From: a virus
Lineage: Duplodnaviria > Caudoviricetes
Virus record (IMG/VR): IMGVR_UViG_3300027749_000034
Length of the DNA stretch: 64,000 nucleotides
Reading direction: 5' to 3' (one strand)
Position 1 is the stretch's first letter. Every line of letters begins with the position of its first letter. The position numbers were made by a program, and so were the translations under genes. The notes below the pieces were generated by a model that worked only from the letters and a program-made list of their open reading frames with translations, was not told where the DNA came from and did no database searches. Of this stretch, positions 13,352 to 28,586 are shown one piece after another.

Positions 13352-15178
13352 ATGGCAGACATTCCAGTTATACCCGGCGTTTCAGTTACCCCAATGGGGA
13401 TACTCAATAGACCAATCAAAGACATCATTTGTGCTATCCTTTTTGGTGGCATCAATAACATGCTCAAAGGAAATTTACTTTGTGTAAATTTAGACTTGGA
13501 AAAATTGTTAGATGAACCAATTGTTGCAGACATAAAAGCCGAGTTGACAGATCTAAAGAATGAACTCAAGGCCATGGAAGAAGCGTCTGGTATCAAAGAT
13601 GTGCTTGGCCGAGTCAATCAGGGCATCGCTGAAGTTCAAAATCTACTGGCACTGGATGGCTTATGTAAAATTCCACTGAAGTGTCCTCCGATACCCGACA
13701 TCCTGAACATGACCATTGACGCAGAGTTTGCCACTGCCAATGCAATTTTGGATGATATTGGTAGATTAGAAAAACCAAAATTATGTATCAATGGTGCTGG
13801 TGGTCTCAATACTGGTTCATACAATCCCAGTAGCATCTTGGGTAGAATACAAAGCAACATTACCAGACTGGGAACTATTCCTGGTCATGAATTAGACATA
13901 TTAAAAAGACAATTGACACGAGTGACTGCTGGACTAAAGGCCAGTCTCAATAGACAGTTGTTTCCAGATTTCAGACACAAGACAGATTTGACAACAGGCA
14001 GGCCATATGCTAAAGGTGGTGCTGGTGTAATACTGGCCAGTGCCGCTGAACAGACCAAACTGAAGGCCAAGATTGCCGCTGACTCAGCATCGCCTGCAGG
14101 CCTACTGGCATGGCAACAGGTAGCAAACATGCCTGGAGCATCTGCCGCGGATATTCAAGCATCATATCCGCCAGGTGACGCCAGTCTAAAAGATGCAGTC
14201 AACATAGCACAGACTCTGGTAGGTGGAATGAAAAAGACTGCCAGTTATCCTTCCACAGCCAATGGAATTATAAATGCAAACATGTGGCCCGGTGTGTTGG
14301 GTCCAGACATATATGCTATGGCAGTACAGGCAATGAGTCCACAGGACCCGCTATTTGTACAACAAGATCCACTGTATGATTATTGCGGTAAGTTCATTGG
14401 ATACAATGAAACAGTTATAACCGGCGACTCTGCATACAAAGGTGGCGACCCAAAGAAAGATGCTGTATTGAATCCACACAAAACAAACTTTGAATTCAAT
14501 TGGATCGCAGATAGACAATGTTGGGCAGTCACTGGCGTACAAAGCGAGCAAGTGGTAAATGGAAGAAAGGACACTTATCTAGATGCAAATCCAGAAATTG
14601 AATTGCATCGAGGGTATAGTCATATTCTAAGTGTGCCAAGTGCTGACATCAGTGGATTCGTTATGAGTGGCGACTATCCAACAGCAACTAGTACGGCTCC
14701 AGAATTTTTTATATGTCGAGTTGGAAACGATCTAAGGCCACTGATTGCCAATGGCGAAATTGTCAAGTTCAACATGGGACTAAGCAGACTTGAGACATCA
14801 GAAGTATTGGACAATGCCAATGGTTGGCTACCAAGTGAAACAGAACATGCGGGTATTGATGGTCCAGAAGGATACAATCGTAGATTAGAAAACCCAATGG
14901 GTACCACATTGTATTTTTCAGTCGAACAACGACAATACTCGGGTACTGTTCCTCCGCTGTACCCAAGCAAGGACATTTGGTGGTATAATCCAACCACTCT
15001 TATAACACAACAGTGGATACCAGATGGCGAGGCCAGTGGTCAATGGGTTGTAGTATCTGATCAGGATAGAAACAATCATTGGTATGGATCAAGTCCTTTG
15101 CAGAGCGATATAAGTGCAAACTATCTGGCCTACAGTAATCGAAATGGTTCAGTTTTTGGCCTATTAAAATTAATTTGA
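13352..15178 (+). CDS. hypothetical (putative virion/baseplate) protein
   Basis: 608-aa ORF next to PAAR/M15; TAAGTA at 13339. Confidence 0.7.
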   Translation: MADIPVIPGVSVTPMGILNRPIKDIICAILFGGINNMLKGNLLCVNLDLEKLLDEPIVADIKAELTDLKNELKAMEEASGIKDVLGRVNQGIAEVQNLLALDGLCKIPLKCPPIPDILNMTIDAEFATANAILDDIGRLEKPKLCINGAGGLNTGSYNPSSILGRIQSNITRLGTIPGHELDILKRQLTRVTAGLKASLNRQLFPDFRHKTDLTTGRPYAKGGAGVILASAAEQTKLKAKIAADSASPAGLLAWQQVANMPGASAADIQASYPPGDASLKDAVNIAQTLVGGMKKTASYPSTANGIINANMWPGVLGPDIYAMAVQAMSPQDPLFVQQDPLYDYCGKFIGYNETVITGDSAYKGGDPKKDAVLNPHKTNFEFNWIADRQCWAVTGVQSEQVVNGRKDTYLDANPEIELHRGYSHILSVPSADISGFVMSGDYPTATSTAPEFFICRVGNDLRPLIANGEIVKFNMGLSRLETSEVLDNANGWLPSETEHAGIDGPEGYNRRLENPMGTTLYFSVEQRQYSGTVPPLYPSKDIWWYNPTTLITQQWIPDGEASGQWVVVSDQDRNNHWYGSSPLQSDISANYLAYSNRNGSVFGLLKLI

Positions 15179-15203
15179 CAAGCCGATCAAATAAGTATAT
15201 ACT
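15175..15203 (+). promoter_or_regulatory. sigma70-type promoter of tmRNA
   Basis: TTGACA-17-TATACT. Confidence 0.85.
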
Positions 15204-15209
15204 GTAAGT

Positions 15210-15500
15210 TATTGCTGTATGAAGCAAAGAGAAAAGTGTTCTGGACGGGGGTGCGAATCCCCCCAGGTCCACCATAAGCACATAGTTGTCCTAGATGAAA
15301 GAAACCTCTTAGGGCTCTAGTGGGGATTGTGTGCTTTTGATGGGCCTGACCTAGATTCGACAGGGCAACAAGTAACAGAGTGGACAGCACGACAGCGATA
15401 GTCGTAAAAACTAAACAAAAGTAACCGCAAACGACTCACAGTTCGCATTAGCGGCCTAACAGCCACTTAGGGTAAGACATACCTCGTAACAGAAACTCAG
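15210..15500 (+). ncRNA. ssrA: tmRNA, circularly permuted two-piece form
   Basis: T-arm plus CAGGTCC-ACCA (ends 15274) precedes the 5' end GGGCCTG (15342) with G3.U; tag ORF ANDSQFALAA*; ends are approximate. Confidence 0.93.
15427..15459 (+). other. tmRNA proteolysis tag reading frame (ANDSQFALAA*)
   Basis: gca aac gac tca cag ttc gca tta gcg gcc taa. Confidence 0.9.
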
Positions 15501-15528
15501 AAAAGGTTGCTTCGGCAACCTTTTTCTT
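15501..15528 (+). terminator. intrinsic terminator
   Basis: AAAAGGTTGC-TTCG-GCAACCTTTTT. Confidence 0.9.
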
Positions 15529-15576
15529 TATAAGTATTTTTATAATACGAACATTATCACACTAAAGAATATATCA

Positions 15577-16032
15577 ATGGCTGAAATATTAATTGCAACA
15601 GAACAAGATAAAAGCGGCACAGATGTGACAATTTATATGGCGCAAACAATTGCCGGAAGTCCGGTGTATCCATTTTATTTAAAAAATTATGCAGAATTAA
15701 TGGATGCAGGTTTGGCTCAATCTCTGCTGTATTCATCAAATCGAACCAAAGCAGTATATGCAACGATTGACAATAAGGTTGTTGGAAACATAGTTTATGA
15801 AATACAAGAAGATGTTTTCAAGTCCTGCTACTTGTTGTTTAGTGCAGTTGACGAAAATTTTAGACAGCGTGGAATTTTGAAATTGATGCACAACCACTTT
15901 GAAGTTATTATTAAAAAACAAGGTGCAAAAAAATTGTACAGCTTTGTCCATGTAGATAATGCGCCCCGAATCGCCAGTTGTGTGGGCCTAGGTTTAGAAA
16001 AGCAATTTTATAAAATGTATAAAGTGTTGTAA
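15577..16032 (+). CDS. GNAT acetyltransferase
   Basis: VDENFRQRGI acetyl-CoA motif, HVDN motif. Confidence 0.8.
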   Translation: MAEILIATEQDKSGTDVTIYMAQTIAGSPVYPFYLKNYAELMDAGLAQSLLYSSNRTKAVYATIDNKVVGNIVYEIQEDVFKSCYLLFSAVDENFRQRGILKLMHNHFEVIIKKQGAKKLYSFVHVDNAPRIASCVGLGLEKQFYKMYKVL

Positions 16033-16072
16033 AAATACAACACTTGACCATTGTTTCCCTTTGTGCTATAAT
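16025..16072 (+). promoter_or_regulatory. palindromic operator plus sigma70 promoter
   Basis: TGTTGTAAAAATACAACA (16025-42) then TTGACC-17-TATAAT. Confidence 0.8.
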
Positions 16073-16095: not shown

Positions 16096-16599
16096 ATGGA
16101 ATTAGTAGAAAGAGCCAGAATTTTTGCAACAGCGGCCCATACCGCTGTGGCACAATTACGGAAGTACACTAATGAGCCGTACATTGTGCATCCTGCCGAA
16201 GTGGCCGGCATTGTTGCCACAGTTCCCCACACTCCCGAAATGTTAGCGGCCGCTTGGTTGCATGATGTGGTTGAAGACACTGGTGTTACCAACGAAGTGA
16301 TCCGTGCTGAATTTGGCGCCACAGTTGCAGAGTTGGTTGGCTGGTTAACTGATGTCAGCAGGCCCGAACAAGGCAATCGTGCTGTCCGCAAGGCAATAGA
16401 CCGGGCACATACTGCTGGTGCACCTGCTGAAGCACAGACTGTAAAGTTGGCCGACTTGATCTCAAACACCAGAAGCATTGTGGCACAAGATGTTGCCTTT
16501 GCCAAAGTGTACTTGGAAGAAAAGCGGTTGTTGTTGGAAGTGTTGACTCGTGGTGATGCCACATTGATGGCAGAAGCCAGGACCAGTGTGTCTAAATGA
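16096..16599 (+). CDS. HD-domain small alarmone hydrolase-like protein (SpoT/Mesh1 family)
   Basis: AH...RKY..EPYIVHP, WLHDVVEDT, VKLADLISN. Confidence 0.85.
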   Translation: MELVERARIFATAAHTAVAQLRKYTNEPYIVHPAEVAGIVATVPHTPEMLAAAWLHDVVEDTGVTNEVIRAEFGATVAELVGWLTDVSRPEQGNRAVRKAIDRAHTAGAPAEAQTVKLADLISNTRSIVAQDVAFAKVYLEEKRLLLEVLTRGDATLMAEARTSVSK

Positions 16600-16763
16600 T
16601 CAGCGAACAAGACCTTGTGTTTCGTTTGAGAAAAAGAGCAGAGATCCGGCGGCAAATTTCGACTCGAAAGAGTGTACAAGAAGGAGCCCCGGATCGAATT
16701 GCCGACCTGTTGGAAGAAGCCGCAGATGAAATCGAAAGACTTAGAAAAAATGAACCAGCCTAG
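16596..16763 (+). CDS. small hypothetical protein (not in ORF track)
   Basis: MISEQDLVFRLRKRAEIRRQ...DLLEEAADEIERLRK, fills the gap with overlaps at both ends. Confidence 0.7.
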   Translation: MISEQDLVFRLRKRAEIRRQISTRKSVQEGAPDRIADLLEEAADEIERLRKNEPA

Positions 16764-17220
16764 ATTGTACATGTTGATTGGAATCCCCGGTGCAGGTAAA
16801 AGTACCTGGATTAAAAATCAGCCTTGGGCCTTGGGGCTGACTGTGGTCAGTACAGATGCGTTTGTAGAAGATTATGCCAGAGCCCAAGGCAAGACCTATT
16901 CCGAAGTGTTTGAGGAATACATGCCCACTGCTGTTGACCTAATGAGTCAACAGATTGTATTTGCTCGAGATCACGGTCATACTGTAATTTGGGATCAGAC
17001 CAGTACCACAGTTAAAAGTCGTGCTAGAAAGTTTCGCATGTTGCCCAACTACTATCACATTGCTGTGGTGTTTAAAATACCAGACCATGTAGAATTAGCT
17101 CGCCGCTTGGCCGCAAGACCTGGCAAAGTAATTCCAGATCGAGTGCTGGATGATATGATTATTAATTGGGATGAGCCAGAAGAAGAAGAAGGCTTTGACG
17201 AGATCTGGTATATATCGTAA
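16750..17220 (+). CDS. P-loop kinase (polynucleotide kinase/AAA_33-like)
   Basis: LIGIPGAGKST, VSTD, WDQTS. Confidence 0.82.
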   Translation: MNQPRLYMLIGIPGAGKSTWIKNQPWALGLTVVSTDAFVEDYARAQGKTYSEVFEEYMPTAVDLMSQQIVFARDHGHTVIWDQTSTTVKSRARKFRMLPNYYHIAVVFKIPDHVELARRLAARPGKVIPDRVLDDMIINWDEPEEEEGFDEIWYIS

Positions 17221-17756
17221 TGAAAACATGGGTTACTTCTGACATACATTTTAGTCACACCAACATTTTAAAATTCTGTGCTGACAGTAGGCCGTTTCAC
17301 GACATCACTGAAATGAATACTGCAATTATCAACAATCACAATAGTGTGGTTGGTTATGATGATTTGGTTTACATACTGGGTGACATTGCATTTACCGATG
17401 CAATTTCAGCATCCAGGCTGTTGAATCGAATGAATGGAAAAAAGATTCTGATCAAGGGCAATCACGATGTCAAGCTGTTGAGAGATCAAACTTTTAGAAA
17501 CTGTTTTGCAGAGATACACGAATACTTGGAACTTGGTTACAAAGAATTCCGGATTGTATTGTTTCATTATCCAATTTGGGAATGGGATATGATGCATAGA
17601 GGTGCGCTACACTTCCATGGTCACTGCCATGCTAGGCCCACCGGTGTTCCTGGCAGGATCTTGGATGTCAGCATGGATGGAAACAATTGCTTTCCTTACA
17701 GTATGGATGAAGCAGTTCAATTGGCCATGAAAAAAATTGTCAGAAGTCACCATTGA
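17220..17756 (+). CDS. calcineurin-like metallophosphoesterase
   Basis: SDIHF, LGD, GNHD, FHYP, HGHCH. Confidence 0.88.
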   Translation: MKTWVTSDIHFSHTNILKFCADSRPFHDITEMNTAIINNHNSVVGYDDLVYILGDIAFTDAISASRLLNRMNGKKILIKGNHDVKLLRDQTFRNCFAEIHEYLELGYKEFRIVLFHYPIWEWDMMHRGALHFHGHCHARPTGVPGRILDVSMDGNNCFPYSMDEAVQLAMKKIVRSHH

Positions 17757-17812
17757 CAACTGCGATAACTTCAGCTATAATAACTTTGCAACAATCATTT
17801 TAGGAGATTTAT

Positions 17813-18346
17813 ATGATCACAATGAAAGAGTGGATGGAATTGGTTGACTATAAAATTACCGAAGGTAGTGAATATGGTTGGTCGTGTTATGGCCCAAATG
17901 CTTACTGTTTAGACTCATGGAATGGAGTACATGGTGCAGGTGGATATAGTTTTAGCATTGTATTCAGTACTAAAACACAAAAGGTCTACGAAGTCAGTGT
18001 ATGTGACTATACCAATGACCGTGCCTATCGTATGATTGTAGAGAACAAGCAGGACAAGCACCGCAAGGAAGCAGAATCCAAAAGCGAACTGGCCAATCAA
18101 GCATGGGACGATGTCAACTATATTGATTTGGATGTTGATGATGATTTTTTCCAAAAATCACTGGCCATCAAAGAAGGAGATGAGTATGACACTCGTATAC
18201 TGGTTCCGGTTGACTTCAGTGATGACGATTTGTTGCACTACATGAAAATAGCACATGATATGGACATCACATTCAACGAATTTGTTGAAATGGCACTAGA
18301 AGAAGCCATAGCAAAGCATCAAATATTGCCAAAATCCGACGATTAA
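17813..18346 (+). CDS. hypothetical protein
   Basis: 177-aa ORF, AGGAG RBS, upstream TTGACA/TATAAT. Confidence 0.75.
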   Translation: MITMKEWMELVDYKITEGSEYGWSCYGPNAYCLDSWNGVHGAGGYSFSIVFSTKTQKVYEVSVCDYTNDRAYRMIVENKQDKHRKEAESKSELANQAWDDVNYIDLDVDDDFFQKSLAIKEGDEYDTRILVPVDFSDDDLLHYMKIAHDMDITFNEFVEMALEEAIAKHQILPKSDD

Positions 18347-18350
18347 GGTT

Positions 18351-18368
18351 ATTACAGATTGTTTACAA
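18351..18368 (-). promoter_or_regulatory. possible Pho-box-like tandem repeat
   Basis: TTGTAAA-CAAT-CTGTAAT (11-bp period) on minus strand, upstream of porin-like gene. Confidence 0.3.
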
Positions 18369-18436
18369 TCTATAAATAGTGTTCACAGTTAAGTATTTTC
18401 GAATACTTGGGTGTATATAAAAAGGAAATATAATTT

Positions 18437-18997
18437 ATGAAAAAAGTCTTAGCAATTTTAGCACTAACTATTAGTGGCTCAGTATTTGCAGGTTCTATCA
18501 CAGTTGAAGGTCAGAACATTGACGGTCAAAGTGGCGGCGCCGATCAGAAAAACTTCAACATGACAGCAAAGGAAAGTATCAACAATACTTTTGCAGGCCA
18601 TATTCAAGTTTCAACAACTCAGACAGATAATACCAATGCATTGTCAACTCGTCTTGAGGCTGGTTTGACCGGTTCTGTTGCAGTATTTGGTCCAGTGACT
18701 GGTTATACCACAGTTGCAGTAGGTGAGAAATACAGTTCCACTGGTAGTTTTGCTTACTACTCAGTTGAGCCAGGTCTCTCTGCACCAATTGGTAGCACTG
18801 GTCTAACTGCAAAGGTTGGATACCGTTATCGTACTTCGTTTGATAATTCCAGCGTTAACTTGGATACAACTCAAACAGTTCGTGCTGGCGTATCATATGC
18901 TCTTAGCAAACAAGATGCAGTTGGTGTCCGTTACGACAAGGTAACAGGCGATTCCAAGCAAAATATTATGGCAGTCAACTACACTCGCAGTTTCTAA
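18437..18997 (+). CDS. outer-membrane beta-barrel (porin-like) protein
   Basis: Sec signal ending VFA, alternating amphipathic strands, C-terminal YTRSF. Confidence 0.8.
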   Translation: MKKVLAILALTISGSVFAGSITVEGQNIDGQSGGADQKNFNMTAKESINNTFAGHIQVSTTQTDNTNALSTRLEAGLTGSVAVFGPVTGYTTVAVGEKYSSTGSFAYYSVEPGLSAPIGSTGLTAKVGYRYRTSFDNSSVNLDTTQTVRAGVSYALSKQDAVGVRYDKVTGDSKQNIMAVNYTRSF

Positions 18998-19017
18998 TTT
19001 TTTAAATTAGTTTCACC

Positions 19018-19043
19018 AAAAGCCACCACTACGGTGGCTTTTG
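19018..19043 (+). terminator. intrinsic terminator
   Basis: AAAAGCCACC-ACTAC-GGTGGCTTTT. Confidence 0.8.
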
Positions 19044-19112
19044 TGTTTTTGCAGTACATAACTATAATGTAAGACAACAGTTTTACGACACACTCAAACA
19101 CAGGAGATTATT

Positions 19113-19379
19113 ATGAGTACAATTGCCCCTAACGGCTACCAACTTCGTCTTGAACTACTCAAGATGTCAAAAGAAATGCTAGAGCAAGACTGGCATGCAC
19201 ATCGCGAATCGCTTCGGTCTCAATGGGAACAAGAAGTTAACTTGGTCCAAATTCGAGCCCATTCAATTGATCAACCAGTTGAAGCAGTTCCAGCACAACC
19301 CGCCTTCCGACCTTTTCCTACTGAGGAAGAGATCATCAAGAAGGCCAAGGTCCTAAACGAGTTCATTGCACAGAAGTAA
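19113..19379 (+). CDS. hypothetical protein
   Basis: 88-aa ORF, AGGAG RBS. Confidence 0.75.
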   Translation: MSTIAPNGYQLRLELLKMSKEMLEQDWHAHRESLRSQWEQEVNLVQIRAHSIDQPVEAVPAQPAFRPFPTEEEIIKKAKVLNEFIAQK

Positions 19380-19498
19380 TAAACGGTAGTTTCGCCAAAA
19401 GAAGTCTATGTGGCTAACACCTCATAGACTTTCTGTTTAAGTAATGTTACAATGTTAAAAGCATCACAATTAGTGATGTAATAATTTAAGGAAACACA

Positions 19499-19777
19499 AT
19501 GTTAAAGAAATTTGATGAAACCACTAAACAGTATAAACTGTTCAAAGCCCTTGTTATCAATGGCGAGTCATTGACAGAAGCCGCAATTGAAAAGCGTTTT
19601 GGTATCAAGAACCCAACTGCAACAATCAGCGTTATTCGTCAACGCGGTTATGCAGTTTATGCAAATCCCCGTAAAGCAGGTAATGGCGTTCAGGTCACTG
19701 AATATCGCCATGGTGAAGCCAGCCGTCGTATGGTAGCTTTGGCATACAAAGCACAGGCCATGGGCATCACAATCTAA
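19499..19777 (+). CDS. putative winged-helix DNA-binding protein
   Basis: LTEAAIEKRFGIKNPTATISVIRQRGY HTH-like segment. Confidence 0.6.
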   Translation: MLKKFDETTKQYKLFKALVINGESLTEAAIEKRFGIKNPTATISVIRQRGYAVYANPRKAGNGVQVTEYRHGEASRRMVALAYKAQAMGITI

Positions 19778-19800
19778 TTTGCTTAAAAATTAGACAAATT

Positions 19801-19823
19801 AGCCCCTTAATTGGGGCTTTTTT
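19801..19823 (+). terminator. intrinsic terminator
   Basis: AGCCCC-TTAATT-GGGGCTTTTTT. Confidence 0.85.
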
Positions 19824-19828
19824 GCGGC

Positions 19829-19884
19829 TGTAGCATAAAAACAACAGAAAAACGGTTGACAGCAAAACAGTTTAATAGTATAAT
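19829..19884 (+). promoter_or_regulatory. degenerate operator plus sigma70 promoter
   Basis: TGTAGCATAAAAACAACA then TTGACA-17-TATAAT. Confidence 0.75.
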
Positions 19885-19914
19885 ATACAAATACAAATAC
19901 ATGAAAGTTCAACT

Positions 19915-21984
19915 ATGAAACTCAAAGCACTAACCTTAGCAATTTTATTGGCCCTGGGCAGTACAGCCTACGCTCAGACCAAAGCACTAAATTATGAAGC
20001 GCAGGAAATTTCAACAGCACTTGTAAAAACAGGTGTACCAGTTGCATGGTCCAGGGGGTTCACTGGCAAAGGTATAACAATTGCCATTGTTGATCAGGGC
20101 TTTGATTTAACTCATGCAGACTTTGCCAATAAAATTGTTGGCAGTAAAAATTTCTATGATCCAGCATCAGCGGTAACTTGGGGCCATCATGGAACACTGA
20201 TGGCCGGCATCGCGGCCGCAAATAAAAACGGTTCAGGTACAGTTGGTGTTGCACCTGATGCTAACTTATTGTTGGCTCAAGTGGGAGCTGGTGGCAGTTC
20301 AGTTGGCATTAATTTTACCGCAGTAAAGCAAGCAGTGGATTGGGCCAGTGCCAACGGCGCATCAGTTATCAATCTGAGCCTTGGATCCGTGTTTGATCCA
20401 AATTTTACCAATGGTATCTCTCAAATGTCTGCAGGAATTTATAAAGCACCTGCCGCATATGGATCATTGTATGGTTATAGTACAACCGATGTGCAAGCAT
20501 TTGCTGTAGGTACCAACAGAGGAAGTATCATTGTTGCGGCCGCAGGCAATCAGGGACTGGCATACTCACAGGTACCTGGCATGTTTGCCACGCAGGTTGA
20601 TAGCACAGGTAAACTAGTACTTGGCGGCAAAATGCTGATTGTTGGATTTGCTGATACCAACGGCAATATTGCCACAGCATCAAACAAGGCCGGCTCCATT
20701 TGTAATAACATATCTGGCTCTACCTGTAACGATCCTTATCTTGTCAAAGACTTTTATGTTGTTGCGCCAGGCATGCAGTTGTATGGCTCAGTGGCCAATC
20801 AATATGGATTGAAAGATGACAAAGGCAATTTGAACACCAGCGGCTCAATTGCAGTTACTGGATCCAGTGGCGCCACGGCCTATGTGTCAGGTGGCGTGGC
20901 GTTGATGAAACAGGCGTGGCCACAGTTAAGGTCAGAACAAATTGTTTCATTGATTCTAAATACAGCCACGCCAATGGGCGATTCAAATGTTACCGGTCGC
21001 GGCATGGTTAACTTTGACAAGGCAACCCAGCCAATGGGCACAGTTACACTGGCCAACATGACCAAATTGAATGGCTCTGGACCACAAGGTAAAACAGTTG
21101 GCCTCACTGGCACCGGAGTAGCTACATCTGGTGCAATTAGTTTGGCCACCAGCTCAGTGCTACAAAATACTCAAGTGGTTGACAGCATTGGTCGTAACTA
21201 TACTGTAAACTTAACACAGGCAGTTGGATTTACCAACTCAATGAGTTACCAATATGCCAGTCCTTGGATGGCTATGGCTTCGTCAAACTACAGACACATG
21301 GCAGTACCATTTGGTAAAGATGGTGTAATAACATTCATGACCAGTGACACAGGTACCGCAAGTCAATATGAGTGGCAACATAGTGAGCGCACTCGACTTA
21401 ACTTTGAAGTGGGTGCATTAAAGGAATTGAATAGTGTACTTGGTTCACAAGGTGGTGGCGCATTGGCATTTGGCGGTAGCAATACCACATGGTTTGGTGG
21501 CGGCGGCAGTTACAAGATTGCCGAGAATACTGCACTGATTGGAAAATATACTGTGGGCTTTACCAAAACCTCCAATGTACAAGATAGTATGGTACAATTA
21601 GACTCTACAATTATAAGCGACTCATGGAAGCTTGGAGCATCACAAGAACGAGTGTTTATCAATCAAGGCAAATTACATGATGAAATTACTCTAGCCGTGG
21701 CACAACCAGTACAAGTACGAAGTGGTAGTGCAACAGTAACTGGAGTCACATCTTACACATACACAGACAATGGTGATGGCACAAGTACTGCAAATCCGCA
21801 GTCACAAACAATGCGTTCAAGCTTGGCTCCGCAAGTTCGTGAAATGGATCTGGTACTTGGTTATACTGTCAAACATACCAATGCAACCAGTGTTGGATTT
21901 AATGTGGTACGCCAGTTCAATGCAGGTGGTGCCGCAGGTGTACAAGCAACAGGATTTTCAATAATGGCCCGTAGCGTATTTTAA
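19915..21984 (+). CDS. S8 subtilisin-like protease with C-terminal autotransporter-like beta domain
   Basis: Signal peptide; triad IAIVD / HGTLMAG / GSSGA; AAAGN oxyanion Asn; terminal Phe. Confidence 0.85.
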   Translation: MKLKALTLAILLALGSTAYAQTKALNYEAQEISTALVKTGVPVAWSRGFTGKGITIAIVDQGFDLTHADFANKIVGSKNFYDPASAVTWGHHGTLMAGIAAANKNGSGTVGVAPDANLLLAQVGAGGSSVGINFTAVKQAVDWASANGASVINLSLGSVFDPNFTNGISQMSAGIYKAPAAYGSLYGYSTTDVQAFAVGTNRGSIIVAAAGNQGLAYSQVPGMFATQVDSTGKLVLGGKMLIVGFADTNGNIATASNKAGSICNNISGSTCNDPYLVKDFYVVAPGMQLYGSVANQYGLKDDKGNLNTSGSIAVTGSSGATAYVSGGVALMKQAWPQLRSEQIVSLILNTATPMGDSNVTGRGMVNFDKATQPMGTVTLANMTKLNGSGPQGKTVGLTGTGVATSGAISLATSSVLQNTQVVDSIGRNYTVNLTQAVGFTNSMSYQYASPWMAMASSNYRHMAVPFGKDGVITFMTSDTGTASQYEWQHSERTRLNFEVGALKELNSVLGSQGGGALAFGGSNTTWFGGGGSYKIAENTALIGKYTVGFTKTSNVQDSMVQLDSTIISDSWKLGASQERVFINQGKLHDEITLAVAQPVQVRSGSATVTGVTSYTYTDNGDGTSTANPQSQTMRSSLAPQVREMDLVLGYTVKHTNATSVGFNVVRQFNAGGAAGVQATGFSIMARSVF

Positions 21985-21994
21985 GGAAAAACAG

Positions 21995-22192
21995 ATGCAG
22001 GATCGTGACCATGTACGGCAACGAATGACTGAAATTATGGAGCTCATAGACAGCTCTATTCAGTTGACAGACGATAGAGAAGAGCTTATAATGTTAGCAT
22101 GTGCCATGTTACAACGCACAGTAGAATTACTCGATGACACTATTGGTGAACAAGGTCGAGATACCATATTAAAAGGATCACTAAGTGAGTAA
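21995..22192 (+). CDS. hypothetical protein
   Basis: 65-aa ORF with RBS. Confidence 0.65.
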   Translation: MQDRDHVRQRMTEIMELIDSSIQLTDDREELIMLACAMLQRTVELLDDTIGEQGRDTILKGSLSE

Positions 22193-22439
22193 AGCCAAAC
22201 ACAAACCTTATCAATGGATTGACGGTGAAACAGCGGATCGTATTACCAGCATGAATCTCAAAGACTATCGTGCGTATCTAAAGAAAGAAATCAAGCTGTG
22301 GAAGAAGAATCCCAAGACTGACACCAACCCAAGTGGCCATTGGATGCACCCAGAGGATGTGGGCATTAACATGCAGACCATTGAGGCATTGGATTTGATC
22401 ATCAGTCACTTTCCAGAAACACCGGATGAGATAAAATGA
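22185..22439 (+). CDS. hypothetical protein
   Basis: 84-aa ORF, GTG start in operon. Confidence 0.65.
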   Translation: MSKAKHKPYQWIDGETADRITSMNLKDYRAYLKKEIKLWKKNPKTDTNPSGHWMHPEDVGINMQTIEALDLIISHFPETPDEIK

Positions 22440-22633
22440 AAAAATGGATATATGTAATTTTAATGGGACTATTATGGTCCATGGTTGTAGTAAGTATTTT
22501 TAGTGCAGTTGCTACCAAGCCTCCACAAGTCATGTGCCTTGGGGGTATTGTAATGACACCAGACAAAGGTGGAGACATGTGGGTCCAGAAGGGCCTATTC
22601 CCAACGCATTGTATGTCTGTAGACAAGGATTAA
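22436..22633 (+). CDS. small membrane-anchored protein
   Basis: N-terminal hydrophobic helix. Confidence 0.6.
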   Translation: MKKWIYVILMGLLWSMVVVSIFSAVATKPPQVMCLGGIVMTPDKGGDMWVQKGLFPTHCMSVDKD

Positions 22634-22634
22634 T

Positions 22635-23222
22635 ATGAAAAAAGAACTAGACGAATTGTTGTGCAAGAAGTATCCAAAGATGATGGTGAACCGTGAAAAG
22701 TCCATGCGAGAAACTTGCATGTGTTGGGGATTTGAATGCGGCGATGGTTGGTTCCAAATTCTAAATCAACTCATGGGCAATATACAACATCACATTGACT
22801 GGCGTCTTCGTCAGCGTGAAGTTGCTATCAAAATGAGAGAAATTGCTGTGCAACTGAAAGCTGGCAACAGTGAGTTATTTGATCATGACATGATGGACAT
22901 GATCAATCTAGAGTACAAAGAAAAGCGCCGGCAAGAACTTATTGAAGATCCATTGCGTGAAGTACCAGAGGCCATTCATCAAGTTACCTTAGACCAAGTT
23001 AAAGAGAAGTTTGGCACATTGCGATTTTACTACACTGGCGGTGACGAATACATCAGTGGACTTGTTAGCATGGCAGAAAGCATGAGTGGTGTCACTTGCG
23101 AGGAATGTGGCAATCCTGGTAAACAAGTTGGTGGTGGTTGGATTACAACCTTGTGCCAAACTCATGCAGAAGCTCGGGGAATCTTTTTTGACAATGAAGA
23201 AGATGAAACTGTCGACAATTAA
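22635..23222 (+). CDS. conserved phage hypothetical protein
   Basis: FECGDGW, QVKEKFGTLRFY, C-terminal CEECG...TLC zinc motif. Confidence 0.8.
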   Translation: MKKELDELLCKKYPKMMVNREKSMRETCMCWGFECGDGWFQILNQLMGNIQHHIDWRLRQREVAIKMREIAVQLKAGNSELFDHDMMDMINLEYKEKRRQELIEDPLREVPEAIHQVTLDQVKEKFGTLRFYYTGGDEYISGLVSMAESMSGVTCEECGNPGKQVGGGWITTLCQTHAEARGIFFDNEEDETVDN

Positions 23223-23388
23223 TTGGGAGTTGTGTGGCGCAATAACTGCCATGTGTGTTTGTGTGTATCTTTTGTTTACTATTCCTTGGCCAAGGCAACA
23301 GGTATACAACTGTAGCATTTCAGAAATTAGTCCCGACTATCCTATAGAAGTCAAAGAAGGTTGCCGTAAATTACGGATAGAGAAATAA
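23203..23388 (+). CDS. small membrane protein
   Basis: TM helix followed by YNCSISEISPDYP motif. Confidence 0.55.
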   Translation: MKLSTINWELCGAITAMCVCVYLLFTIPWPRQQVYNCSISEISPDYPIEVKEGCRKLRIEK

Positions 23389-23389
23389 A

Positions 23390-23851
23390 ATGACAAAAGA
23401 AACAATCTTTTACATCAAGCAAGGCCGCAAGTATATCCCTCACAGCACATACAATAGTGAGTTCTGTGATGCATTTCCCAAAGGCACGCACCTGGTACAA
23501 AGCTATGCAGGCGGGAGTCTGCGTAGGTTCAATATTGATCCAAAGTATGCACCAATGATTGCCGCTGGCCGGGTCGCCGAGGAAAAGATTAGTGAAGTGT
23601 TAATGAAGGCCAACGAACTACGGCCAATGACTGCACCAATTACCCCAGCGGCTCACCGAGCATGGATGAAGCTGAAGAAAGAGCTCGGCAACGATGCTAT
23701 GTTGACTAGAGGTAGTGCAAGAGAAGCGGCCGAGTCAGCAGTCAATGCAATGGTTCAAGAAGCTGGCACTCTCATGGAACATCCAATGGTACAAGCCGCC
23801 TACCAGGAGTTTGAAGTAATCTGTAAATTGGTCAACGAGCAAAATAAGTAA
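23390..23851 (+). CDS. hypothetical protein
   Basis: 153-aa ORF in operon. Confidence 0.75.
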   Translation: MTKETIFYIKQGRKYIPHSTYNSEFCDAFPKGTHLVQSYAGGSLRRFNIDPKYAPMIAAGRVAEEKISEVLMKANELRPMTAPITPAAHRAWMKLKKELGNDAMLTRGSAREAAESAVNAMVQEAGTLMEHPMVQAAYQEFEVICKLVNEQNK

Positions 23852-23854
23852 AGG

Positions 23855-24532
23855 ATGAAAGTACAAGCGCATCCGGACTATTTTTGCCCTTTATCGTTGA
23901 AGTTACCGCAGACCGCAAAAACCTTCCTACAAGAATTCTTTGTAGATGATTTAAAGGAACAACAATCAAAGAAAAGGCAGTTGGGTTTATATCCACTGCC
24001 TGATTCTACAGCCTTGATTGAATTAAAGGAATTGGTAGATAACTTTTTGGCGCCACTGCAATTGGCGGCCGGTTCGTATGGTGCATTTGCATTGAAAGAG
24101 TCCACGCAAGATGTCAACATACATGTTGACGCCATGCGTCTCAATACCAGACTGAGTTTTTATGAACTTGCAGAAACACCGGGTGTTATCAATTGGTGGC
24201 AAGATGATGGAACAGGATATGAAGCATGGCGACCCAGTTACCTGGGTGGTAGCCCAATCCTTGATTATCGCTTTCCTTGGGTTGATGATTTACAAGCAGG
24301 AAAAAGAACTTGGGATGAAGTCCCCAAGCCTGTATTTGGTACAAGTACAGCAGTACCTAGTGCTTTATTAATGACAGCACTACCACACAATGTATTTCAA
24401 GGGCCAGGCTTTAGAATCACAATCACCTGCCAGATTGTTAACCGTCAAACTCGTTCAGTTGAACACACTTGGCAACAAGTACAACAGCATTTTAACTCCA
24501 TTGCATTGCCTGCCAGTGCATACGAATCGTAG
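23855..24532 (+). CDS. 2OG-Fe(II) dioxygenase-like protein
   Basis: IHVD ... PHNV ... R-I-T (HxD...H plus Arg). Confidence 0.55.
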   Translation: MKVQAHPDYFCPLSLKLPQTAKTFLQEFFVDDLKEQQSKKRQLGLYPLPDSTALIELKELVDNFLAPLQLAAGSYGAFALKESTQDVNIHVDAMRLNTRLSFYELAETPGVINWWQDDGTGYEAWRPSYLGGSPILDYRFPWVDDLQAGKRTWDEVPKPVFGTSTAVPSALLMTALPHNVFQGPGFRITITCQIVNRQTRSVEHTWQQVQQHFNSIALPASAYES

Positions 24533-25295
24533 CATAGCCAGATCCAAAGTAGTCGGAGCCAGACATGAATTTAAACAGCTGGCCATTGTAATTGGGATTG
24601 GCAGTGATTAGTTTTATAGTTGTTTGTGCTACCTCTGCTGATTTTGCAAAGAACACTTTGTTTTTGCCCCACATGATTGGATACAGCAATTTTTCTTGAT
24701 GGGCAATCACAGTGGCCCAAGTGCGTAGCGGTGCACCTGTGCACCAGTCGTCTACAATGTAGATACCACGATCTTTTAGCTTGGGTAACGACTTTCTAAT
24801 GGTGTTGAGATTTTCAGCAACACCGTCCCCGTAGTCATGATGTATAATATCATACTGTTCATCAGCTTCTGCTTCGCTCAGGTAGCAAGTCAAGGACATT
24901 GTCCTGCCAGTCAATTGTTCAGATCTTGTGGCAATCCAGGATTGCATATCTTTGGCAGTAGATAATGTTGCTAACACTTCTATTTCTTCTTGGCTTAAAC
25001 AACGATTAAAGTGATCTGTATACCAAGCACCACTAGAGTTTGTTTCCTTTGCCCCGATAAAGTTCAAATGATCAACACCGGTAAATTTTACACTATTATG
25101 ACCGGTTTCGCACAATGCTTCATTAAATATTGCAAGTCCACCGCCGATGTAAGATCCAAGTTCTAGGAACTTATCAATTTTGGGTAAACTACCAAATAAC
25201 AGCCAACATGCTATGACATCCTCCGGTGGACTTAACATTCCAAGCTTTAGGACATGTTGATAGATGTTGTTTAGATTTTTCCAGGAATAGTCCAC
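24492..25295 (-). CDS. class I SAM-dependent methyltransferase
   Basis: FLELGSYIGG, YDIIHHD, GIYIVDDW; GGAG RBS with GTG start. Confidence 0.8.
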   Translation of the reverse strand: MDYSWKNLNNIYQHVLKLGMLSPPEDVIACWLLFGSLPKIDKFLELGSYIGGGLAIFNEALCETGHNSVKFTGVDHLNFIGAKETNSSGAWYTDHFNRCLSQEEIEVLATLSTAKDMQSWIATRSEQLTGRTMSLTCYLSEAEADEQYDIIHHDYGDGVAENLNTIRKSLPKLKDRGIYIVDDWCTGAPLRTWATVIAHQEKLLYPIMWGKNKVFFAKSAEVAQTTIKLITANPNYNGQLFKFMSGSDYFGSGYATIRMHWQAMQWS

Positions 25296-25317
25296 TTTTT
25301 CTCCAATAAGTATGTGT

Positions 25318-25854
25318 ATGATTGACGACTTCTATGTATACGAAACACCTGACTTTTTAGATCTTCCTTACATTAAAAAACTAGTTATGGACAAGCTTGA
25401 GGCAGAGTTTGTCCTTAAAGGGTATGTGAGAATTGACGTCAGTACCGACGACTATCTAAAATCACTGCAAGAAAGGTTTGTATTCTTGGGTGGTTGGTTG
25501 AACATATATCATACCCCTCCAACAGGGTATATCCCCTTGCACATCGACGGACATCGACTGGCGGCATTCAACATACCAATCAGTGGATGTGATGATACAT
25601 CTGCTACAATTTACTATGAGCCAGTTGACGGCGAGATTGAAAAAGTCTACAAGCCTGACGAACGGCACTACCGAATCACGGGAGAGATGAAAGAGGTTTA
25701 TAGATTTTCATTGAAGCGTCCTGCACTGATTCGCAATGATGTGGCTCACGATGTAAAACGATTTGACTCCACTGATATTAGGATCATTGCCAGTTGGGGA
25801 GTAGCAGGCACCTTTGAAGAGTGCAGAAAAAAATTCAAAGAAATTTTGCCATAA
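25318..25854 (+). CDS. 2OG-Fe(II) dioxygenase-like protein
   Basis: LHIDG..AFNIPI ... AHDV ... RIIAS; TAAGTA at 25307. Confidence 0.6.
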   Translation: MIDDFYVYETPDFLDLPYIKKLVMDKLEAEFVLKGYVRIDVSTDDYLKSLQERFVFLGGWLNIYHTPPTGYIPLHIDGHRLAAFNIPISGCDDTSATIYYEPVDGEIEKVYKPDERHYRITGEMKEVYRFSLKRPALIRNDVAHDVKRFDSTDIRIIASWGVAGTFEECRKKFKEILP

Positions 25855-25858
25855 GAGG

Positions 25859-25887
25859 TAGACTTCTAAGTTAAAAGGATATATAAT
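25859..25887 (+). promoter_or_regulatory. sigma70 promoter of leader/attenuator 1
   Basis: TAGACT-17-TATAAT, ATG 6 nt downstream. Confidence 0.7.
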
Positions 25888-25893
25888 AATACT

Positions 25894-25959
25894 ATGTTAA
25901 ATGTAAAATTGTTACCAGGTAATACAGGACCAGCCACAGAGGATACTCCGAGGCCGTAA
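25894..25959 (+). CDS. putative leaderless leader peptide MLNVKLLPGNTGPATEDTPRP
   Basis: Starts at predicted TSS; ends 23 nt before terminator. Confidence 0.55.
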   Translation: MLNVKLLPGNTGPATEDTPRP

Positions 25960-25982
25960 CTCTACGCATAGTGAGATTACAG

Positions 25983-26013
25983 GCCCTGGAAATAAAAACT
26001 CCGGGGCTTTTTT
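25983..26013 (+). terminator. attenuator-type intrinsic terminator 1
   Basis: GCCCTGGA-9nt-TCCGGGGC-TTTTTT. Confidence 0.85.
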
Positions 26014-26018
26014 ATTGT

Positions 26019-26094
26019 GCGGGCGTAGCTCAGTTGGTAGAGCATTACCTTGCCAAGGTAAATGTCGTCGGTTCGAACCCGATCGCCCGCTCCA
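26019..26094 (+). tRNA. tRNA-Gly(GCC)
   Basis: Cloverleaf, TTACC-TT GCC AA-GGTAA, CCA encoded. Confidence 0.97.
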
Positions 26095-26098
26095 GGCT

Positions 26099-26272
26099 TG
26101 TTGTAGAAATACAACAAAAATAAAGGCAGATAGTTGTTGACAGGAATGAGTAGATAGCATATACTAGTTGAATACTGTAGCAATACAGCAGAAACAGTTT
26201 GAAAAGTGTTGTAGAAATACAACAAAAGAAAGTTAGAAAACGGTTGACATTACGGCATTGTCCGTATATAAT
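26099..26272 (+). promoter_or_regulatory. tandem operator plus sigma70 promoters (rrn P1/P2-like)
   Basis: Operators 26099-116 and 26207-224; TTGACA-17-TATACT (26137-65) and TTGACA-17-TATAAT (26244-72). Confidence 0.85.
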
Positions 26273-26280
26273 AACCAAAC

Positions 26281-26315
26281 ACTACAGCGAAAGTTGTAGT
26301 GATTGTTCTTTAAAA
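26281..26315 (+). promoter_or_regulatory. boxB-like hairpin plus boxA antitermination site
   Basis: ACTACAGC-GAAA-GTTGTAGT then TGTTCTTTAAAA. Confidence 0.7.
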
Positions 26316-26331
26316 ATTTGGTGGCATTTGT

Positions 26332-26406
26332 GCTCGATTCGTCTATCGGTTAGGACATCTGGTTTTCATCCAGGCAAGAGCGGTTCGATTCCGCTATCGA
26401 GTACCA
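26332..26406 (+). tRNA. tRNA-Glu(TTC)
   Basis: Cloverleaf, loop TT TTC AT, CCA. Confidence 0.95.
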
Positions 26407-26615
26407 TATGCAAGAATACTAAGGTTACCTAGACCACTAGGCGACTGGGATGATGGCAGTGCCGACGGGTGCTGGTCAAGTCCAGGAGCATGAAACAGGC
26501 GCAAGCTGGATTTGCGGTGGACAATCTAGGAGTAATGACCGTGCAGGCCTATACGAGACGTTCGTATATGGTAGACATAGATGCACAATGGTTCCTTTAG
26601 TATTCTTACATATGG
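26404..26615 (+). ncRNA. unknown structured RNA enclosed by 21-bp stem
   Basis: 26404-24 pairs 26595-615 with one C/A mismatch; internal hairpins. Confidence 0.6.
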
Positions 26616-26619
26616 TATT

Positions 26620-26705
26620 GCGAGTATGGTGAAATCTGGTAGACACAAGAGACTTAAAATCTCTCGCCGCAAGGTGTCCCGGTTCGACTCCGGGTACTCG
26701 CACCA
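26620..26705 (+). tRNA. tRNA-Leu(TAA)
   Basis: Type II cloverleaf, loop CT TAA AA, CCA. Confidence 0.96.
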
Positions 26706-26779
26706 AAATTAAGGCAATTGGGTTGTCAACCTAATTGGAGGCTAAGGCGTTATTAGTATATGCACTCCAGGAGAACAGC

Positions 26780-26920
26780 ATGTCAAATGATATATTAGCC
26801 CAAGTAAGAGAGATGTTGGATCGTACAAGAGATCCTTTTGAGATCGCGCACAAGTTGCATATTGATCTTGAATTTGTACAACAAGCAATGTCAATTTTAC
26901 TGAACAAAGTGTTAGCCTAA
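26780..26920 (+). CDS. small hypothetical (HTH-like) protein
   Basis: AGGAG RBS; PFEIAHKLHIDLEFVQQAM. Confidence 0.65.
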   Translation: MSNDILAQVREMLDRTRDPFEIAHKLHIDLEFVQQAMSILLNKVLA

Positions 26921-26928
26921 ACAAATTT

Positions 26929-27003
26929 GGTCTGTTCGTATAGAGGTTATTACTGTGGATTGTCTATCCACTTACGGGGGTTCGATTCCCCCACAGACCG
27001 CCA
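26929..27003 (+). tRNA. tRNA-Asp(GTC)
   Basis: Cloverleaf, loop TT GTC TA (U37), CCA. Confidence 0.93.
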
Positions 27004-27009
27004 ATTTTT

Positions 27010-27085
27010 TCCGCCTTAGCTCAGTTGGTAGAGTAGATGACTGTTAATCATTTGGTCCCTGGTTCGAGCCCAGGAGGTGGAGCCA
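27010..27085 (+). tRNA. tRNA-Asn(GTT)
   Basis: Cloverleaf, loop CT GTT AA, CCA. Confidence 0.96.
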
Positions 27086-27122
27086 AGAAAACATCAGTTT
27101 CTTTCATTTTACAAAGGCAATT

Positions 27123-27347
27123 ATGACATACATCAGTCGAGGAGTTGACATTGATACAGATCAATGTGTACAAAATGTTGGAGGCAATCGATTCAACTTG
27201 GTTTTAATTGCCGCGGCAAGAGCCAGGGAAATTAGTCAAAACAATAGAGAAAGTGTTCGCACAGAACATCTCCATACACCAGTAACTGCATTACTTGAAG
27301 TCCAAGATGGTAAGTTGGGGTATGAAGGAATACGAAAAGTTCGTTAA
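27123..27347 (+). CDS. rpoZ: RNA polymerase omega subunit homologue
   Basis: VGGNRFNLVLIAAARAREI ... PVTALLEVQDGK matches omega signature NRFDLVLVAARRARQ...VIALREIEEG. Confidence 0.85.
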   Translation: MTYISRGVDIDTDQCVQNVGGNRFNLVLIAAARAREISQNNRESVRTEHLHTPVTALLEVQDGKLGYEGIRKVR

Positions 27348-27353
27348 GTATAT

Positions 27354-27429
27354 CGCGGGGTACGTCAGTGGTCAGACTGCTAGGCTCATAACCTAGAAGA
27401 CGGAGGTTCGAATCCTTCCCCCGCAACCA
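27354..27429 (+). tRNA. tRNA-fMet(CAT), initiator-like
   Basis: CGCGGGG 5' end with C1xA72 mismatch, loop CT CAT AA. Confidence 0.9.
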
Positions 27430-27430
27430 G

Positions 27431-27624
27431 ACGTTCCGAGTGTCTTCGGATAGTGTGACCCACACGATGAGAAGTAGTGTGACAACTACGGGTGGTAGTC
27501 TTTGAACCGAAAGGCCGCTGGCAATGCGATAACGGAACCTGTCGGGAAGTGGGTGGAAGCCGTGTGTGATGGTGTTGGGGGTTCCTGGCGCTTGATACGG
27601 TACAATTACCACCGGGGTTCGCAG
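27431..27624 (+). ncRNA. unknown pseudoknotted structured RNA
   Basis: GTTCCG/CGGAAC (27433/27533) crosses GGTGGTA/TACCACC (27491/27607); GNRA hairpins. Confidence 0.5.
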
Positions 27625-27696
27625 AGCATATTAAAACACACTCTAACCGCAAGGTGACAAGTGAGCTCATGTTCATGAAGTGTGTTTCAATATGTT
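27625..27696 (+). ncRNA. long-stem hairpin cassette
   Basis: 18-bp stem AGCATATTAAAACACACT/AGTGTGTTTCAATATGTT with one A/C mismatch. Confidence 0.55.
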
Positions 27697-27700
27697 TTTC

Positions 27701-27776
27701 GGGGGTGTAGCTCATTTGGGAGAGCGCCTGCTTTGCAAGCAGGATGTAGCAAGTTCGATCCTTGTCACCTCCACCA
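27701..27776 (+). tRNA. tRNA-Ala(TGC)
   Basis: GGGGGTG acceptor with G3.U70, loop TT TGC AA. Confidence 0.96.
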
Positions 27777-27796
27777 TTATTATAAAGGAAAGTCGT

Positions 27797-27964
27797 ATGC
27801 ACGAAGCTGGTAAGGGCGATAGCCCAAGACCCTACAGCGTTGATTCAAAAACTTACTCAGACAATTGGGACACAATTTTTGGTAAGAAAGACAACAACGA
27901 TAAAAAAGAAATTGTTGATTCTTTGGACAAAAAACCAACAGACAACAATCCTGCGGCTAAGTAA
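27797..27964 (+). CDS. small hypothetical protein
   Basis: AAGGA RBS; GKGDSPRP...NWDTIFGK motif. Confidence 0.7.
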   Translation: MHEAGKGDSPRPYSVDSKTYSDNWDTIFGKKDNNDKKEIVDSLDKKPTDNNPAAK

Positions 27965-27968
27965 GATT

Positions 27969-28409
27969 ATGTTGCACTTGATTCAAACACTGGGGGAAAA
28001 TATACTGGACTTGATCAGTCAAGACCCAGTACGCCCACATATTCCTGCAAATGATAGGATTGGCAACAACAAAGAAATTTTTGTACTCAAAAATGAAGAC
28101 GACTCAGTTCGTGCAATCACCTGCGTAAGTTATCAAAACAGTATTCCCAAGTCTGAACTGGATTTGTTTATTTCAGATGTAGAACCAGACACAGCAGTTT
28201 TTTATACAATTTGGAGTTACAAGCCCGGAGCAGGCCGTCAGTTGATTTTTGATGCAGTTGACTACATCAAAAAAAATAAACCAAGTATAACAAAGTTTGT
28301 TACACTAAGTCCTAAAACAGAAATGGCCAAGCGTTTTCATACCAAGAACGGTGCTATTATTTTTAGAGAAAACGAAGAGTCAACAAACTACGAATATTTG
28401 CATCCTTAA
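27969..28409 (+). CDS. hypothetical protein (possible GNAT-like fold)
   Basis: QDPVRPHIP, FYTIWSYKPGAGRQLI, TLSP..EMAKRFH; stop codon lies inside tRNA-Val. Confidence 0.7.
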   Translation: MLHLIQTLGENILDLISQDPVRPHIPANDRIGNNKEIFVLKNEDDSVRAITCVSYQNSIPKSELDLFISDVEPDTAVFYTIWSYKPGAGRQLIFDAVDYIKKNKPSITKFVTLSPKTEMAKRFHTKNGAIIFRENEESTNYEYLHP

Positions 28410-28475
28410 CTCAGTTGGTAGAGTTCCTCGCTTACACCGAGGCTGTCGGCGGTTCGAGCCCGTCAGGATGTACCA
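28400..28475 (+). tRNA. tRNA-Val(TAC)
   Basis: Cloverleaf, loop CT TAC AC, CCA. Confidence 0.95.
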
Positions 28476-28497
28476 AACAACATAAGTAAATTTCAAC

Positions 28498-28573: not shown

Positions 28574-28586
28574 TTTTTAATCACCC

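Follow-up and report, generated by a model that had tools for sequence, protein, structure and literature searches.

Several phages and mobile elements change how the host RNA polymerase behaves without encoding an enzyme of their own, as exemplified by Alt, ModA, AsiA and gp55 of T4, N and Q of lambda, and TraR of conjugative plasmids. The attenuators of the his and thr operons consist of a short open reading frame (ORF), competing antiterminator and terminator helices, and a run of U residues, and a GC-rich discriminator is the defining feature of a stringently repressed promoter of ribosomal RNA (rrn) operons. The rRNA antitermination complex requires the boxA element, which on its own suffices to form it (PMC10250234). 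In the polymerase omega subunit, guanosine tetraphosphate (ppGpp) contacts main-chain atoms of Ala2, Arg3 and Val4, and this site, site 1, governs elongation pausing in E. coli, not stringent repression of initiation (PMC10191844; PMC13192712). Among small alarmone hydrolases (SAHs), the enzyme of Salmonella phage SSU5 neutralises every toxic synthetase tested (PMC7229694), others remove pyrophosphate from the ends of transfer RNA (tRNA) and thereby restore it, and the substrates of the family vary from (p)ppGpp to NADPH and pyrophosphorylated tRNA (tRNA-PP) (10.1101/2021.04.30.441581). Here we report the analysis of a 64,000-nucleotide stretch of the IMG/VR virus record IMGVR_UViG_3300027749_000034 (Duplodnaviria; Caudoviricetes), called the window below, in which a gene for the omega subunit lies within a cluster of tRNA genes behind a boxA leader, and a predicted alarmone hydrolase is encoded upstream.

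Most notable at this locus is that its omega belongs to a family of phage proteins whose ppGpp site is putatively rebuilt and whose genes lie in tRNA arrays that appear to use rRNA-type antitermination. The best explanation overall, to which we assign a probability of about 0.5, is that a host sigma70 polymerase is tuned for uninterrupted elongation by three separately inherited accessories. The sequences and their conservation, the context of the genes and their independent assortment were read directly; all binding and activity is inferred. Close relatives were used in place of the whole genome of the window phage: the related records are 343-358 kb long with a completeness of 94-100%, and the close relative G032 (285 kb) has aligned blocks with ~73-93% DNA identity to the window. 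A literature search, with subscription journals mostly outside its reach, found neither a phage-encoded omega nor a boxA at phage tRNA arrays.

Omega genes in phage tRNA arrays

The window omega ORF lies 38 nt 3' of tRNA-Asn and 7 nt 5' of tRNA-Met and is preceded by a Shine-Dalgarno-like sequence. An earlier note on this DNA had proposed an RpoZ homologue inside the tRNA operon, and this assignment is confirmed by matches to PF01192 (E=1e-9, 38.5 bits, cut-off 26) and TIGR00690 (31.4 bits, cut-off 23.6). The top Foldseek matches of its structural model are all omega chains, though none at E 0.001. The gene differs from that of a 97% relative by 12 synonymous and 2 non-synonymous codon changes and is under purifying selection.

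The family comprises 102 clusters at 90% identity in a word search and 384 confirmed stretches among viral contigs; clustering at 50% identity leaves 162 representatives that match with E below 1e-10. At 160 of these 162 loci (not dereplicated) tRNA genes are present, mostly flanking omega directly and usually within ~100 nt. The family is almost confined to tRNA arrays of ~350-kb freshwater phages without an RNA polymerase of their own; isolate phages gave zero matches to the window omega. Matches of an E. coli omega query among isolate phages appear to be host sequence from records with wrong labels (unverified) and were set aside. Metatranscriptome contigs from three studies span omega; as such contigs give neither strand nor level, they were not counted as proof of expression.

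A phage-encoded partner polymerase was rejected, as no recognisable beta or beta-prime domain was found in the near-complete relatives, and the partner of omega is therefore presumably the host enzyme. Sigma70 region 2, DksA/TraR and NusB were likewise not found in these genomes, where divergent forms could escape detection. RpoZ-type omegas bind regions D and G and the C-terminal tail of beta-prime. Modelled as a complex with beta-prime fragments of Polynucleobacter, the window omega reached a score of 0.81, whereas the best control reached 0.00; at least 93% of contacts agreed among runs, and the predicted local distance difference test (pLDDT) value of the partner was at least 80. The mark used is reached by 58 of 80 solved pairs and by 2 of 110 mismatched pairs. 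Since omega-beta-prime complexes have already been solved, which the score may reflect, and the host beta-prime is a stand-in, the model shows likeness, not binding. The beta-prime-binding core of the phage omegas is conserved far better than the remainder. In a tree, a fork with values of 100/96 sets the ten cellular omegas apart from every phage-type sequence, the closest of the ten being betaproteobacterial; the alignment is short and most other forks are open.

The relative G032 also encodes a quite different omega (L267, C1 30092-30319), placed elsewhere within the same tRNA array. The gene thus moves within arrays, and the variant suggests omega gene exchange.

The ppGpp site and the omega N-terminus

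All ten cellular omegas sampled start with MAR(V/I)T. At the positions equivalent to Ala2, Arg3 and Val4, the phage family carries Thr or Pro, then Glu, Gln, Thr, Ser or Asp, and then Ile or Val. The window protein reads Val-Asp-Ile-Asp in this register, its Arg being at position 6, further up by three residues, and a site-1-competent start (Ala2-Arg3-Val/Ile4-Thr5 right after the initiator Met) is absent from it. The motif Arg-x3-hydrophobic-Asp-x3-Cys was found in 192 of 249 phage-type sequences and the MAR start in one; the Arg lies mostly 6-9 residues from the protein start and is invariant across a 59-sequence alignment of close phage omegas. This comparison with host-type omegas, which the earlier note had called for, thus reveals a replaced MAR(V/I)T start and indicates that site 1 has been rebuilt, not simply deleted. 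A minority of phage omegas carry a host-like MAR start or, preceded by a short extension, an ARY motif (L292:6001-6237; L273-L275; L270). These also occur in or near tRNA arrays and constitute natural controls for the rebuilt type.

Because the N-terminus no longer presents Ala2-Arg3-Val4 in register, site 1 would be weakened or altered, and we slightly favour the view that ppGpp-stimulated pausing and backtracking are reduced. As site 1 acts in elongation, an omega swap would alter elongation and would not release stable-RNA promoters from stringent control. The proposal that the swap desensitises the polymerase is supported in so far as the protein is plausibly a subunit for the host polymerase and its site-1 N-terminus is remodelled; it is not supported for initiation, which site 1 does not control in E. 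coli.

The Arg of the ALRE motif, which may have a role in ppGpp binding, is mostly Leu in phage omegas. Its loss tracks the rebuilt N-terminus (8/82 vs 9/28, p=0.012, kinship ignored); neither this possible role nor the correlation is used as support.

Promoters and putative antitermination leader of the tRNA array

The tandem promoters and the boxB/boxA leader of the earlier note were recovered at the positions given in Table 1. The perfect boxA consensus GYTCTTTAANA (taken from PMC5725501) occurs a single time in the window, both strands taken together. Among the 16 plus-strand promoters of the window scoring 11/12 or better, one is followed by boxA, and in G032 boxA stands at leader distance behind 1 of 47 promoters. 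Near-identical boxA elements are present in the rrn leaders of Ralstonia and Neisseria. At the omega loci, boxA-like matches number 31 in the forward and 8 in the reverse direction, and ~20 matches share one layout, namely a promoter, 25-38 nt that include a hairpin, boxA, and often tRNA-Glu or tRNA-Leu ~28 nt further on. Among 26 distinct omega loci for which 8 kb or more of upstream sequence is available, 20 are preceded by this cassette, 13 of them with a perfect boxA.

The association with tRNA extends beyond omega. When contigs were scanned without selection for omega, 21 matches had a good -35 element; a tRNA followed within 350 nt in 13 cases and further on in three, several of them without omega in view. 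After dereplication, a tRNA was found within 350 nt of 19/21 strong promoters with boxA vs 112/493 without (relatedness inflates the p-value). The hairpin covaries: 81% of the cells are paired, vs 16-56% in slid controls, and two-sided changes number 17, in a test that favours the hairpin because the structure was picked from the sequences scored. We consider it highly likely that boxA is functional in loading the Nus complex. No boxC motif was seen in the leader, no Rfam family matched it, and the longest downstream complement that could form a leader-trailer helix (exact Watson-Crick pairs only) did not exceed the reverse-strand control at most of 22 loci.

The discriminators of P1 and P2 each contain 2 G+C in 6 nt, close to the means for promoters with boxA (2.3) and without it (1.9), whereas that of rrnB is GC-rich. 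The promoters of the tRNA array are of the standard AT-rich type of the phage and not special, and the array is predicted to be rrn-like in elongation, not in initiation control. The idea that the array is transcribed like a host rrn operon is therefore supported by the conserved leader and contradicted by the AT-rich discriminators, the lack of a visible boxC and the predicted reverse logic of the probable attenuator described below.

Promoter-boxA cassettes with neither a tRNA nor an Rfam family behind them occur on the viral contigs L343, L354, L355, L369 and L395, most of them with the hairpin, and possibly precede unknown non-coding RNAs or arrays. Within the window array, the segment 27431-27690, 3' of tRNA-Met, is non-coding, lacks an Rfam match and is spanned by RNA-library contigs. 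A 146-aa ORF at 27969-28409 has a borderline match to the C-terminal (GNAT-like) domain of malonyl-CoA decarboxylase, and its homologues recur near hydrolase or omega in relatives.

Alarmone hydrolase and co-occurrence of the components

The SpoT/Mesh1-like HD hydrolase of the earlier note is borne out as a stand-alone HD_4 domain (Pfam, E=1e-16), in which the catalytic columns H, HD, ED, D and N are common to E. coli SpoT and the SSU5 enzyme. It is 49% identical to the latter, and its placement as PaSpo-like is by pairwise identity only. It is very probably an active, broad 3'-pyrophosphohydrolase. It would lower ppGpp, as the earlier note proposed; what has been tested for the nearest characterised phage enzyme is neutralisation of toxic alarmone synthetases (PMC7229694). 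By itself the hydrolase is ordinary, being common and separately inherited, with homologues in 266 isolate phage records and >7,500 protein clusters. Within 2.5 kb of it, a phosphoesterase is found at 63 and a kinase at 53 of 80 loci. In the window, a 55-aa ORF, an AAA_33/PNK-like kinase and a calcineurin-like phosphoesterase (16596-17756), which accompany the hydrolase at most loci, may form a cluster for RNA or nucleotide end healing.

In the earlier note, hydrolase, omega and rrn-like leader together make up a single stringent-response override, by which tRNA promoters repressible by ppGpp would stay active. The gene order argues otherwise: the hydrolase lies 11 kb upstream of omega and has its own promoter, and further promoters and an opposite-strand gene intervene, so that hydrolase and omega are not one transcription unit. 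All three components occur together in the window, G032 and G033, and omega is present on 13 of 24 hydrolase-bearing contigs. Against a common module, omega occurs without the hydrolase in G001 (98% complete) and G007 (94%), and hydrolase and boxA occur without omega in G034 (100%); the boxA cassette is present in all four near-complete genomes (G001, G007, G033 and G034). These genomes are all linear records, in which a gap could mimic gene absence, and absence of the hydrolase rests on family searches, a direct protein search in five genomes having given no match and having had no positive control. Hydrolase and omega assort independently and are not one co-inherited module.

Probable attenuator and shared palindrome

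A promoter, P0, a leader peptide and an intrinsic terminator stand 5' of tRNA-Gly. Of the 20 codons of the leader peptide, 17 are decoded by tRNAs from the cluster behind it (against a background of 0.51; p=0.002 for a wobble set chosen post hoc). In folding calculations, a ribosome at codons 3-12 permits a helix of ~-20 kcal/mol that hides 6-7 of the 8 terminator-arm bases, and a ribosome at codons 18-21 leaves only weak structure. The region 25859-26013 is thus a probable tRNA-sensing attenuator, a layout seen only in near relatives. Its folding would imply read-through when charged tRNA is scarce, the reverse of rrn behaviour. With P1 and P2 situated further downstream, the attenuator may control only a fraction of the output.

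The palindrome TGTTGTA-N4-TACAACA precedes both P1 and P2 and the hydrolase promoter, with sites in the window at 16025, 26099, 26207, 38154, 59977, 60609, 60643 and 61208. Many promoters of the clade are preceded by it at a distance of 1-36 bp; spacings of 9-10, 19-20 or ~30 bp to the -35 element are frequent, and the palindrome is probably the site of a dimeric regulator. Its presence at unrelated promoters too (7 of 31 in the window) suggests a shared regulator that is not specific to hydrolase and tRNA genes. A winged-helix ORF at 19499-19777 is a candidate for this regulator.

Phage, host and other features of the window

Nearly all genes of the window are on one strand, and the window has 27 tRNA genes. 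A permuted transfer-messenger RNA (tmRNA) of betaproteobacterial type was found in all five large relatives searched (four scoring above the Rfam cut-off), and a T4-type major capsid gene in four of the five. From the tmRNA type, a weak tree placement and the RNA runs containing the window stretch, which come from lakes, the host is probably a freshwater betaproteobacterium, and the phage is probably a lake jumbo phage that borrows the host polymerase. A search for the host by tmRNA pattern matched only Patescibacteria and Bacteroidota bins and was uninformative. The window further encodes a host-like IscU (51999-52379, 83% identical to Neisseria and Ralstonia) and a host-like ClpP (54850-55440), and contains a weak tRNA-like match (Rfam, 35 bits) at 39099-39180 not called by ARAGORN.

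Table 1. Positions of the predicted features in the window
Feature	Position	Strand	Remark
RNA polymerase omega subunit of the phage, 74 aa	27123..27347	+	remodelled N-terminus: extension, invariant Arg6, 3-residue insert
First tRNA cluster, 11 genes (Gly, Glu, Leu, Asp, Asn, Met, Ala, Val, Thr, Pro, Gly)	26019..29307	+	omega inside
Promoter P1, sigma70 (11/12)	26137..26165	+	AT-rich discriminator
Promoter P2, sigma70 consensus (12/12)	26244..26272	+	AT-rich discriminator
Hairpin in boxB position, 9 bp, GAAA loop	26280..26301	+	between transcription start and boxA
boxA (NusB/S10 site)	26305..26315	+	28 nt from its start to tRNA-Glu
Promoter P0 (10/12)	25859..25887	+	ahead of leader peptide
Leader peptide, leaderless, 21 codons	25894..25959	+
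Intrinsic terminator and competing antiterminator helix (attenuator)	25981..26013	+	helix overlaps leader-peptide end; folding only
Palindrome TGTTGTA-N4-TACAACA, 18 bp	26099..26116	.	20 bp before P1 -35
Same palindrome, 18 bp	26207..26224	.	19 bp before P2 -35
Palindrome and promoter (11/12) of hydrolase operon	16025..16072	+
Small alarmone hydrolase (HD_4), PaSpo-like	16096..16599	+	167 aa; first gene of separate operon
AAA_33/PNK-like kinase and calcineurin-like phosphoesterase	16753..17756	+	usual neighbours of hydrolase
Permuted tmRNA, betaproteobacterial type	15161..15550	+	own promoter; host clue

Discussion

In the explanation we favour, the phage would borrow a host sigma70 polymerase, probably a betaproteobacterial one, and drive its tRNA cluster from strong AT-rich early promoters. 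The boxA behind P2 would load host NusB/S10 and the rRNA-type Nus complex, shielding the tRNA-rich transcript from Rho and from pausing. Omega would be made from the same transcript and is likely to bind the host beta-prime at the normal omega surface; stringent control of initiation via site 2 and DksA would remain in place. The HD enzyme, encoded in an end-healing-type cluster, would most likely counter alarmone or toxic-synthetase defences, acting on (p)ppGpp, (p)ppApp and pyrophosphorylated tRNA ends; the lowering of ppGpp would be a side benefit, and the hydrolase no fixed partner of omega. Omega and boxA together most likely keep the host polymerase processive. An extension of this explanation, which we hold only tentatively, is that the viral omega disables or plugs site 1 and, with antitermination and the tRNA-sensing attenuator, inverts the starvation logic of the host, so that tRNA transcription would rise when charged tRNA falls.

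Several points weigh against the proposed effect on ppGpp-dependent elongation. With its invariant Arg, the pocket may still bind nucleotide, and an E. coli polymerase without omega residues 2-5 and three beta-prime residues still bound ppGpp, only ~2-fold worse, though it responded very poorly (PMC7676912). As some phages keep a host-like MAR start, desensitisation cannot be the sole reason for encoding omega. The function of site 1 is documented in E. coli and is extrapolated to the host of the window phage, and displacement of the host omega from assembled polymerase by the phage protein is assumed. Finally, the palindrome common to the hydrolase and both tRNA promoters hints at co-regulation of components that we treat as separate.

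The main competing view, which we regard as rather unlikely, is that omega serves as an assembly or stability factor, the extra supply folding and clamping beta-prime during infection, or shifting promoter and sigma preference, with an N-terminus that is re-anchored and a ppGpp response that stays the same. Omega is known to act as a chaperone of beta-prime and to influence polymerase distribution on prophage genes (PMC7700224; PMC5811629), and this view would fit with the superior conservation of the beta-prime-binding core, the location of MAR-start omegas in tRNA arrays, and an invariant Arg that may substitute for the host Arg3. It does not account for the replacement, in most phage lineages, of a strict cellular motif by another conserved motif, a swap that extra supply alone would not favour. 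The single override of the earlier note is improbable: the shared palindrome is in its favour, as is the joint presence of the three components in some genomes, but the palindrome marks unrelated promoters as well, omega and hydrolase each occur alone, and discriminators with ~2 G+C in 6 nt resemble other phage promoters, not the GC-rich rrnB. Very improbable is a built-in ligand, in which an N-terminal arm with the invariant Arg6 plugs site 1 so that the dock/omega module is locked in one state and the polymerase behaves as permanently ppGpp-free or permanently ppGpp-bound: the modelled interface comprises omega residues 3, 5-8 and 10-13 and includes beta-prime residues 366, 368, 421-423 and 622-624, which line site 1 (by an inferred numbering offset), but the host omega contacts the same surface, the model gives no ligand position, and in the monomer the first ten omega residues are modelled with low confidence (pLDDT 62).

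If the favoured explanation is correct, subunit replacement would be a route to reprogramme the host polymerase for which we found no description. The phage omega family, with >100 lineages ranging from an intact MAR to a rebuilt start, would offer a natural mutant series for the function of omega and site 1, and the conserved boxA cassette would carry Nus antitermination from rRNA over to phage tRNA arrays.

Comparison with known systems places each component close to a described counterpart. Like cellular RpoZ (PF01192/TIGR00690), the phage omega has the omega fold and beta-prime-binding core and is modelled at the same surface; unlike it, the gene lies among tRNA genes and not in a gmk-rpoZ-spoT context, the MAR(V/I)T start is missing, and the protein groups apart from the ten cellular omegas. 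The leader follows the boxB-boxA part of the rrn boxB-boxA-boxC order, with a promoter, a hairpin and GYTCTTTAANA 25-38 nt after the -10 element, and its element spacing is similar to that of E. coli rrnB P2 and Ralstonia. In contrast to rrn leaders, which recruit the NusA/B/E/G, SuhB and S4 complex, it precedes tRNAs, has no visible boxC and follows an AT-rich discriminator, and the upstream attenuator would imply induction in starvation, not repression. The hydrolase resembles the PaSpo SAH of phage SSU5, Mesh1 and ATfaRel in its single HD_4 domain with intact catalytic columns, and differs from them in a shorter C-terminus and in the kinase and phosphoesterase usually found beside it. The attenuator shares the short ORF, competing helices and U-run with those of his and thr, whereas its codons are mixed and match the downstream tRNAs, it gates tRNA genes, and its ORF has a leaderless start. 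The polymerase modifiers of T4 and lambda and TraR are enzymes, sigma factors or add-ons, whereas here a viral orthologue would replace a core subunit.

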